A DNA stretch of 64,000 nt, taken from Escherichia coli. GTDB lineage: Bacteria > Pseudomonadota > Gammaproteobacteria > Enterobacterales > Enterobacteriaceae. Shown here one piece after another: positions 25,249 to 27,069 of this stretch. The stretch lies in the NCBI RefSeq assembly GCF_024502345.1, contig NZ_JALDNN010000003.1; one strand, given 5' to 3'. The notes beneath the pieces were generated by a model, which searched no databases, was not told the origin of the DNA, and saw only the letters and a program-made list of their open reading frames with translations. Both the position numbers and the translations under genes were made by a program. The first letter of the stretch is position 1. Each line of letters starts with the position of its first letter.

Positions 25249-25659
25249 TTAGCGCAGGTAGTCGCCTGCAGCTTCAGGCTGGTACTCAAGCTCAATAACT
25301 TCGAGGTGCGTTGAGGTCCCGCCTGGCAGTTCCCAGTGAATGGTATCACCAACGCGCAGCCCCAAAAGTGCAGCGCCGACAGGTGCCATTACCGAAAGCT
25401 GTGTGCTGCTGTCAGTCATAGTGGCCGGATACACCAGGGTACGCACACGGACTTCGCCATCACTCAGATTGCGGAATTTCACGCGGCTGTTCATGGTCAC
25501 GACATCGTGCGGCATGGTTTCTGGAGAACACATTTGGGCACGATCCAGCTCGGCGTTAAGGGCGTCGGCAATCGGTAAACCAGCAAACGCAGGTTGCTCC
25601 AACAGGCGGTCAATGCGTTCCGCATCGAGGTCGTTAATGATGATAGTTGGTCTGGACAT
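25249..25659 (-). CDS. rnk: Regulator of nucleoside diphosphate kinase (GreA/GreB-like)
   Basis: [79 protein letters not shown]... Confidence 0.9.
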
Positions 25660-25889
25660 TTATTACTCCATGTCGTCGATACTGCGGGTGCGCAGGTAAA
25701 TAATCCCAAAAGAAAACCCTCACCGTCAGGCGGCAAGGGTTTAGCTTTTATGATGATACTGAGACTTACCCCATGTTTGAAGTGATTTAGTTCACATTCA
25801 GGCAAATCATCAATATTGTCGCGTATGGTGTAATGTCAGTCAGTTAACGAACCTAAGGTAATAAATCTGTTGCCTCCGTCGCATTGCTA

Positions 25890-26070
25890 CGTTCACCTTA
25901 TGTTATTCACTTCTCTGAAACCATCCTACCTGTGAACGTGTTAAGGGTACTATCGCCGTACCCTTAACAATCCCGGCGGGAGCCTGGGTTGCAAGGGAGG
26001 CGGCGGTGAGCCTCCCTTGCTCGTTCACGGGTATCAGTGCTTCAGAGAAGTGATACCGCTGAGGTGAACG
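25890..26070. other. Highly structured intergenic element: three nested long-range helices enclosing two perfect hairpins
   Basis: Pairings 25890-25898/26062-26070, 25907-25919/26041-26053 (13 bp), 25932-25938/26022-26028; hairpins GTTAAGGGTAC...GTACCCTTAAC (25940-25968) and GCAAGGGAGG...CCTCCCTTGC (25991-26020); stems conserved while spacers differ. Confidence 0.4.
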
Positions 26071-26238
26071 GAACCCTGAGCCGGGATCACATGTTCCCTA
26101 TAATGCTTAACTGACAAGCATTACGCGTATGGTGTGATTTTAGCCGAAAAACGTGATCGTTCTCCAATTTGCATTATGCTTTTTAAGCGCTCGCTGCGGG
26201 CGCGTCAAACAACTCAGTGTTCCGCGACAGGAGATCTC

Positions 26239-27069
26239 ATGAGCCAGTACGACAAACTTACCTTGAAAGACGGCAGCTATTTGCATTTTAAAGATTGGGG
26301 AAGTGGACAGCCCATTGTCTTCAGTCATGGTTGGCCGCTGACGGCAGATGCGTTTGAGGATCAGATGTTATTCCTCGGGTCGAAAGGATTTCGTGTGATC
26401 GCCCATGACAGGCGTGGGCATGGGCGTTCGGCCCAACCCTGGGATGGTCACAATATGGAGCAGTATGCTGACGATCTGGCTGAACTTACCGCGCATCTCA
26501 ATCTTAAAGATGCCGTCCATGTCGGACACTCTACCGGCGGCGGGGAAGTGGCGCGGTATATTGGCCGCCATGGAACGCAGCGGGTCGCAAAAGCGGTGTT
26601 AATTGGCGCGGTGACGCCCATTATGATCAAGACTGACTTTAATCCAAATGGCGTGCCGAAAGAGGTATTCGATGGCATCCGTGAGGGGGTTGTGAACGAT
26701 CGCGCCGCCTTTTTCTATGAATTGACCGCTGCATTCTATGGCTACAACCGTCCTGGCGCAAAAGAGTCGAAAGCCGTCAGGGAAAGTTTTGTTGAACAGG
26801 GTTTACAAGGTTCCATCAAAGCGTTGTACGACTGTATCCACGCGTTTTCGGAAACAGATCTGCGTGAGGATCTCAAAAAGATGACCATCCCGACGCTGGT
26901 GATCCACGGTGATGACGATCAGATTGTCCCGTTTGAAACCTGCGGAAAGGTCGCGGCGGAAATACTGCCTGATTCGCAGTTGAAGGTATATGTCGGCGGC
27001 TCGCATGGCATTTGCACCACCCATAAACAACAGATCAACGGTGACCTGCTCAACTTTATTCAGTCGTAA
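26239..27069 (+). CDS. Alpha/beta-hydrolase (non-haem haloperoxidase/esterase type)
   Basis: GGAG RBS; nucleophile elbow GHSTGGG; 277 aa. Confidence 0.75.

Follow-up and report, generated by a model that had tools for sequence, protein, structure and literature searches.

A strongly paired segment at 25890-26070 of the window (i.e., the whole stretch of 64,000 nucleotides analyzed here) is very probably the interior of an internally deleted, nonautonomous DNA transposon, namely, a MITE with IS4-type ends. Several features together point to an IS4-type MITE: the terminal repeats match those of IS4, the target is duplicated over 11 (or 12) bp, the element is small and lacks a transposase, its copies are few and dispersed, and the insertion is polymorphic, with a precise empty site. 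The striking fold would accordingly be a by-product of a truncated palindromic transposon and not a regulator of rnk, which removes a false lead. The family is apparently undescribed, a statement that we make provisionally; no description of it was found in the literature on Citrobacter MITEs, IS4 and MITEs, and twoAYGGAY or with printed sequence strings. MITEs as a kind of element are already known.

The element is flanked on one side by rnk (25249-25659, - strand) and on the other by an alpha/beta-fold hydrolase gene (26239-27069, + strand); these genes are transcribed divergently. The gene order is dmsC-like, uspG, rnk, hydrolase, flavin reductase, rna, and citT; judging from this order and from the related loci, the window belongs to a Citrobacter chromosome. 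The parts of the element and of its immediate surroundings are as follows.

25812-25839, - strand: promoter-like hybrid site CTGACA-16-AATATT facing rnk (9 of 12 positions match the consensus)
25820-25830: target-site duplication, left copy CGCGTATGGTG, a direct repeat that is single in empty alleles
25831-26123: whole mobile element, short form, 293 bp; this stretch plus one 11-bp target copy is missing from empty alleles
25831-25847, + strand: left terminal inverted repeat TAATGTCAGTCAGTTAA, 16/19 identical to the IS4 end TAATGCCAGTCAGTTAAGC
25848-25889: left subterminal tail, sharing ca. 90% identity with that of the long allele and conserved in locus L028
25890-25938, - strand: left-arm tip module CGTTCAC...TTCTCTGAA...GTGAACG, holding the 5' halves of the three long-range helices; a diverged copy of 26022-26070 in inverted orientation
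25939-25969: hairpin 1, stem of 12 bp, the equivalent, on the left arm, of hairpin 2
25970-25990: central spacer with the deletion junction TCCCGGC/GGGAGCC between 25977 and 25978
25991-26020, + strand: hairpin 2, stem of 11 bp, a conserved feature of every arm in the family
26022-26070, + strand: right-arm tip module CGTTCAC...CAGAGAAG...GTGAACG, holding the 3' halves of the long-range helices
26071-26106: right subterminal tail GAACCCTGAGCCGGGATCACATGTTCCCTATAATGC, conserved after the right arm in Citrobacter copies
26107-26123, - strand: right terminal inverted repeat, reverse complement TAATGCTTGTCAGTTAA, 17/19 identical to the IS4 end
26124-26134: target-site duplication, right copy CGCGTATGGTG

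The first-pass annotation had confined the unit to 25890-26070, which is too narrow. The element ends came out as inverted copies of each other with a direct repeat on their flanks, and the unit comprises 25831-26123 plus the duplicated target on each side; both the terminal inverted repeats and the target duplication lie outside the annotated range and had been overlooked. The ends of the window element (TAATGTCAGTCAGTTAACG and TAATGCTTGTCAGTTAAGC) share 16 and 17 of 19 positions, respectively, with the IS4 end TAATGCCAGTCAGTTAAGC. For comparison, the IS4 copy of K-12 has the ends TAATGCCAGTCAGTTAAGC and TAATGCCGATCAGTTAAGG, with a 12-bp duplication around them. The duplication in the window was scored as 11 bp; the T that follows it is ambiguous, so that 12 bp is possible. 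Duplications of 11 to 13 bp are an unusual hallmark of IS4 (12 bp for the K-12 copy). The right terminal repeat and 26101-26108 form a small terminal hairpin (TAATGCTT/AAGCATTA), and the same right end was present ca. 130 nt past the hairpin 2 motif in some 25 Citrobacter copies. A TATAAT hexamer at 26099-26104 was considered as an outward promoter and rejected: it is not conserved in the other copies, it forms the inner arm of the terminal hairpin, as in the IS4 end, and it was not called by the promoter scan.

Regarding coding capacity, a tblastn search with InsG detected no IS4-like transposase in the window or in the long allele described below (L109), and no associated protein gene accompanies the element. 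The long form holds open reading frames that overlap one another, on either strand of its palindrome (the protein comparison was made with the IS4 transposase only). A protein-coding passenger was rejected on these grounds, i.e., the exclusively overlapping frames and the missing match to the IS4 transposase.

We compared the alleles of this site on contigs encoding an identical Rnk protein, which gave ten places. The rnk-hydrolase spacer is 275 bp long in 7 of the 10 (the empty alleles L105-L108, L110, L111, and L113) and 975 bp in the other 3; that of the window is 579 bp (25660-26238). The flanks are identical in the alignment of empty, long, and short alleles. The empty allele reads ...AAAATC ACACCATACGCG ACAATATT..., with a single target, and both filled alleles carry the target in duplicate around an insert bounded by TAATG...GTCAGTTAA and TTAACTGAC...CATTA. 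At this one site, the element thus occurs in a long form of 689 bp and in the short form of 293 bp; the long form is also found at the rnk site of C. youngae. A site with empty, long, and short-and-inverted alleles offers a natural example of the insertion of a palindromic MITE, deletion at a hairpin, and flipping.

In the long form, two inverted arms of ca. 255 nt, ca. 66 to 70% identical to each other, surround an AT-rich center and make up a large palindrome (-355 kcal/mol; z = -14). At a second Citrobacter locus (torD-yeiP in a C. freundii record), the long form likewise has ca. 400 extra bases between the two hairpins. Between 25977 and 25978, the window copy lacks 396 bp that are present in the long alleles. 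The missing block starts directly after TCCCGGC and ends in TCCCGCC, a 6/7 direct repeat of the retained TCCCGGC; the deletion therefore joins 7-bp direct repeats that bracket the inner palindrome. What the window retains is the last ca. 95 nt of each arm, facing each other. Because two inverted tips face each other, their shared motifs form the 9-, 13-, and 7-bp helices, while the variable spacers of the tips give loops that appear unrelated, with the two hairpins in the middle.

Short forms with the same junction were found at three different loci: the window, L021/L077 (orthologous to each other), and L028. The retained repeat variant is GGC in the window and GCC in L021, L077, and L028, which implies either that the deletion happened more than once or that short forms transpose. 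Deletion between direct repeats is a classical outcome of slippage across a hairpin, and the inner deletion may have arisen by slipped mispairing across the hairpin-prone palindrome. The opposite order of events, in which the long form is a short form that received a second, nested MITE, was rejected: in the single arms of other genera, ...CGATTTTCCCGCC/GGGAGCC... always runs uninterrupted across the junction, and cutting the inner palindrome out exactly does not give the short sequence.

The orientation of the interior provides a further difference between the alleles. In a blast comparison, positions 1-147 and 141-293 of the window element matched positions 1-147 and 538-689 of the long allele with ca. 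90% identity. The interiors of the window element and of L109 (1641-2329) have the same orientation while their chromosomal flanks are opposite, and the outer 17 bp at each end match at 100% in the orientation consistent with the flanks. From this conflict between the interior and the outer 17 bp, it follows that the interior was flipped between the terminal repeats. An independent insertion in the opposite orientation was rejected, given the 100% match of the outer 17 bp in the flank-consistent orientation. Candidates for the cause of the inversion are recombination in the 9-bp GTCAGTTAA, template switching, and transposase action.

The fold that originally drew attention to the segment is real. 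Three nested, perfect long-range helices of 9, 13, and 7 bp are present as first described: CGTTCACCT (25890-25898) pairs with AGGTGAACG (26062-26070), TCACTTCTCTGAA (25907-25919) pairs with 26041-26053, and GTGAACG (25932-25938) pairs with CGTTCAC (26022-26028). The two enclosed hairpins are likewise present and perfect, but with stems of 12 bp (hairpin 1; 25939-25950/25958-25969) and 11 bp (hairpin 2; 25991-26001/26010-26020) instead of 11 and 10 bp. The two halves are, as had been noted correctly, identical in their stems and unrelated in their spacers. The GTGAACG/CGTTCAC motif occurs four times in the window copy, symmetrically placed. The minimum free energy of 25890-26070 as RNA is -108.1 kcal/mol for the + strand and -107.0 kcal/mol for the - strand, and the corresponding shuffle means are -59 (z = -10.2) and -55 (z = -11.7); none of 200 shuffles equaled the native fold. 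Folded as DNA, the whole element gave -70.3 kcal/mol (z = -9.4). That the + and - strands are equally stable indicates a DNA palindrome and not an RNA signal of one strand.

One reading of these data would be pairing by chance or a local inverted duplication, with neither a family nor mobility. A search for a second copy within the 64-kb window found none, as this reading would predict, but many genera have related copies, dozens in all, at unrelated loci, some alleles of the site are empty, and the fold lies ca. 10 standard deviations beyond the shuffles. We therefore give it practically no credence.

The IS4-type MITE reading draws further on the comparison with IS4 itself. The element ends follow the TAATGnnnGTCAGTTAA pattern, with 16 to 17 of 19 positions shared, and relatives of 564 to 737 bp in Lelliottia have ends identical to the IS4 end over 21 of 21 nt. 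These Lelliottia copies carry duplications of their own (11 to 14 bp) at other sites, so that target duplications of 11 to 14 bp and several insertions in palindromic, terminator-like targets are features in common with IS4. In contrast to IS4, the element has no transposase, and its interior consists of two inverted structured modules of ca. 255 nt that are also found without IS4-type ends. As the interior shares nothing with IS4 beyond the ends of ca. 19 bp, simple deletion within IS4 does not account for the element. Among IS4-family elements, MITE-like derivatives are known from Bacillus cereus (MIC231/IS231). By the proposed mechanism, an IS4-type DDE transposase would move the element in trans, recognizing only its terminal repeats and making target cuts staggered by 11 to 13 bp. 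Searches of the window and of the related loci found no autonomous IS4-type partner in Citrobacter. IS4 at ≥95% identity was detected in Escherichia, Shigella, and Enterobacter plasmids; Citrobacter is outside the ten most frequent host genera listed. The only nearby relative that we observed was, in Silvania, an internally deleted IS4-like remnant (L035 8495-9164) with transposase pieces 42 to 56% identical to InsG and the ends TAATGCTGGTCACTTAAGG; it lies in a terminator-like palindrome, ca. 25 nt from an Enterobacter-type arm element.

The element proved to belong to a dispersed family with related copies at unrelated loci. We scanned one genome per species for a 20-nt motif, GGGAGCCNGGGTTGCNAGGG, which is part of hairpin 2. 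The scan returned 101 stretches, 94 from Enterobacteriaceae and 7 from unrelated phyla; for the latter 7, a back-of-envelope estimate gives ca. nine such matches by chance in the collection. The Enterobacteriaceae genera represented were Citrobacter, Enterobacter, Lelliottia, Silvania, Leclercia, Phytobacter, Franconibacter, Yokenella, Buttiauxella, Atlantibacter, and Escherichia, with up to 8 to 9 copies per genome. Many copies lie at contig ends, as would be expected of repeats, which break short-read assemblies. No match to the element was found in the phage collection.

Two kinds of terminal repeat surround the arm. Dispersed copies with IS4-type ends occur in Citrobacter and Lelliottia. 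In Enterobacter, Escherichia, Silvania, Leclercia, and Phytobacter, a single arm without IS4-type ends is bracketed by inverted repeats of ca. 35 bp (CCCTCnCCC...ATCCCCAGTAAT in Enterobacter and its relatives) that hold a CCCTCTCCC-type hairpin. The Enterobacter loci L006-L018, L023, L031, L046, and L067 show such a single arm in a unit of ca. 450 bp with inverted repeats of ca. 35 bp (CCCTCnCCC...GGGnTGAGGnATCCCCAGTAATTT), so that the module has repeats of a second kind at its ends. Franconibacter (L090-L092 and L101-L104) has CGTTCGC/GCGAACG in place of CGTTCAC/GTGAACG, followed by 2 to 3 direct repeats of GCGAACGGAACCTTTCACC.

Toward its terminus, each arm carries one hairpin and then the tip module, which reads CGTTCAC - variable - CAGAGAAG - variable - GTGAACGGAA. 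The motifs shared by the tips (CGTTCAC, TTCTCTGAA/TTCAGAGAA, and GTGAACG) are nearly invariant over 57 arms, and the spacers vary. The right tip module can alternatively fold on itself, which corresponds to helix 9 in single arms. A long helix closes the inner domain of the arm and occurs in compensatory versions, GAAAAT/ATTTTC and GTAAAT/ATTTAC; the domain also contains two hairpins whose loops read CA(U/G)GGA(U/C)G. The forward strand folded better than the reverse in all 57 arms (-117 versus -108 kcal/mol), a bias to which the G-richness of the forward strand could contribute.

Analysis of covariation supported the local hairpins but not the long-range helices. In the four short copies, the 9-bp and 7-bp helices never vary and are therefore uninformative; the 13-bp helix is paired in 88.5% of cells, with six broken cells and no compensatory changes, and 4 of the 12 pairs of hairpin 1 show compensatory changes. 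The RNAalifold consensus of the 57 arms contains 48 pairs, with 99.2% of cells paired and compensatory changes in 12 pairs (164 cells). None of 500 shuffles reached its covariation score, and slid controls were 35 to 42% paired. This consensus takes in hairpin 2 (helix 8 in the alignment, with 99.1% of its cells paired and compensatory changes in 4 pairs) and a local CGTTCAC/GTGAACG stem, against which the CGTTCGC/GCGAACG of Franconibacter is a compensatory pair. Since pairing is kept within arms and not across them, what is conserved is the local structure of the individual arm. The long-range nesting in the window follows thermodynamically from the presence of two inverted tips.

These results bear on the possibility that the segment functions as a structured RNA whose nested fold is active; it could be the gene of a small RNA or part of a 5' UTR that controls rnk or the hydrolase gene. 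Such an RNA would fit the extreme stability of the predicted fold, the compensatory changes by which hairpins 1 and 2 keep their pairing, the location beside the known rnk leader, with a divergent gene downstream on either side, and the parent arms, which behave like structured RNA and resemble the TwoAYGGAY motif. However, most genomes with an identical Rnk lack the element at this site, Rfam gave no match, both strands fold equally, and no promoter/terminator pair surrounds the structure. Moreover, the long-range helices are invariant or broken in the other copies, with zero compensatory pairs, and the window copy has lost the TwoAYGGAY-like part together with the center of the long form. 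We consider an active RNA of this kind very unlikely. Of the initial suggestion of a structured RNA or structured repeat element, the dispersed mobile repeat was substantiated, while the RNA found no support for the window copy. A stand-alone small RNA gene is disfavored, as no promoter and terminator bracket the structure and the site is empty in most related genomes.

The sequence next to rnk was examined in the same light. The rnk leader (RF01771) matched over its full length at 25705-25813 on the - strand (122.5 bits), with a terminator-like hairpin at 25714-25742, and the insertion point is ca. 6 nt upstream of the 5' end of this leader. The possibility that the structure is part of the rnk leader was ruled out, given that the structure begins 77 nt and the element 18 nt upstream of the RF01771 match. 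The promoter and terminator scan found no pair bracketing the structure. At the left boundary, the hybrid site CTGACA-16-AATATT takes its -35-like hexamer from the element end and its -10-like hexamer from the flank; it is present in filled alleles and absent from the empty allele. The empty allele has a promoter-like TGGAGA-18-TAAAAT that ends just before the target (9/12 consensus match) and that is shifted ca. 300 or ca. 700 bp away in filled alleles. We infer that the window copy has no function of its own and that it would, at most, alter rnk transcription by its position.

A palindrome that functions at the DNA level (e.g., a cruciform, a protein-binding array, or a recombination site that serves the host or another mobile element), with IS4-like ends that are incidental, was also weighed. 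It would accommodate the four symmetric occurrences of GTGAACG, nearly invariant over the 57 arms, as well as the additional direct repeats of GCGAACGGAACCTTTCACC in Franconibacter, the in situ inversion of the interior, and the high stability of the element as single-stranded DNA. Against it, no associated protein gene travels with the element, and presence or absence with a target duplication is the signature of transposition and not of a host site. In addition, CGTTCAC/GTGAACG and CGTTCGC/GCGAACG covary as a stem, which argues for pairing and not for recognition of a fixed duplex. This explanation is very improbable in our judgment.

Rfam and known repeat families were consulted for both the short element and its parent forms. 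A scan of the structure found nothing, even at an E value of 10, other than the neighboring rnk leader. Permissive Rfam searches of the window, the long form, and single arms returned only the rnk leader and subthreshold matches to TwoAYGGAY (RF01731). TwoAYGGAY is a probable RNA of unknown function from the human gut, gammaproteobacteria, and Clostridiales (Weinberg et al. 2010, PMC2864571). Scores of 25.6, 29.1, and 30.6 bits were obtained for the long form and for single arms, against a gathering score of 43. Membership in TwoAYGGAY was accordingly rejected; the arms fall below 43 bits and the window has no match. A full arm resembles TwoAYGGAY in its long closing helix, its short inner stem, and its pair of hairpins (loops, CA(U/G)GGA(U/C)G), and it differs in having extra 3' hairpins outside the model. 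AYGGAY-type loops are present in full arms and deleted from the window copy, which has lost the TwoAYGGAY-like part completely. A relative in E. coli K-12 between lysO and aqpZ (L119 3537-3676) aligns to the whole 168-position TwoAYGGAY model with 30.6 bits. Repeats of this lysO-aqpZ type were present in 5,425 of 5,426 E. coli genomes (median, 3 places; maximum, 9) and are unannotated in NC_000913.3, and a related repeat occurs up to 6 times in a Klebsiella chromosome (L117 2440-2700).

The initial remark that the structure is neither REP nor ERIC held, with no match to either. The consensus of ERIC is ca. 127 bp, and its cores are used as primers ERIC1R and ERIC2; these two core sequences had no match within 3 mismatches anywhere in the window. 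ERIC/IRU and Correia/NEMIS elements resemble the family in being small, noncoding, intergenic, and imperfectly palindromic, in forming long hairpins on either strand, in being polymorphic among strains, and in being able to place promoter-like hexamers by genes. They differ in that there is no sequence similarity (the ERIC cores were compared), the ends and the duplication length are different (the target duplication of Correia elements is TA), and the copy number of the element is much lower (ca. 1 to 9 per genome). REPs and BIMEs are likewise intergenic, palindromic, and repeated. REP units measure 20 to 40 bp, are headed by GTAG or CGTC, and number in the hundreds per genome (PMC3733652). 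In contrast, the element is 293 to 689 bp long, with transposon-type ends, a target duplication, and few copies; a REP/BIME identity was thus ruled out for a 293-bp unit with transposon-type ends that occurs once in 64 kb.

The arm, strongly covarying and TwoAYGGAY-like, is the unexplained part of the family. We know of no need of a DDE-type MITE for a covarying module or a strand-biased fold. One tentative explanation, which we regard as possible but doubtful, is that the arm of ca. 255 nt is a mobile structured-RNA gene related to the orphan TwoAYGGAY that has spread in Enterobacteriaceae within at least two kinds of terminal repeat; the Citrobacter MITE would then be a vehicle with two divergent copies, and the window copy would be a dead derivative. 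Relatives of the arm are found in nearly every E. coli genome. If the arm is indeed an RNA, TwoAYGGAY-like RNAs would gain a mobile-DNA context in tractable bacteria, including E. coli K-12. Alternatively, the arm may be a single-stranded-DNA signal for which IS4-type ends are one vehicle. In either case, the window copy is a pointer to an apparently undescribed repeat family with a strongly covarying module of ca. 255 nt.

Several further copies and neighbors were recorded. Downstream of yegH, the yegH-asmA intergenic region of E. coli (L002 2490-2603; further loci of this group, L005, L019, L060, and L071) contains a relic of ca. 100 nt of the 3' part of an arm, which is kept in 3,651 of 5,426 complete E. 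coli genomes and, by eye, resembles the product of a deletion between two TACCCGAT repeats. Genuine REPs lie beside this relic and differ in appearance from the element. Escherichia albertii and some Escherichia strains have a full arm downstream of yegH. A C4 antisense RNA (RF01695; phage P1/P7 type) lies ca. 200 bp from repeat copies in C. gillenii (L100 1286-1373) and in an Enterobacter MAG (L007 863-949).

Matches on records labeled as plasmids did not make the element plasmid-borne, an assignment that was rejected; they represent captured or misassigned chromosomal DNA. A 300-kb record, "E. coli MSB1_9D plasmid 2" (NZ_LR890350.1 96265-102465; L001), is 100% identical to the window and carries chromosomal Citrobacter-type genes (dmsC-like, uspG, rnk, rna, and citT), and it looks misassigned or contaminating. 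An E. coli IncHI1B plasmid (NZ_CP060066.1; L120 3001-3057) carries a solo right tail between torD and uspF, in a Citrobacter-like chromosomal fragment among IS26, IS30, and ISKpn26 copies.
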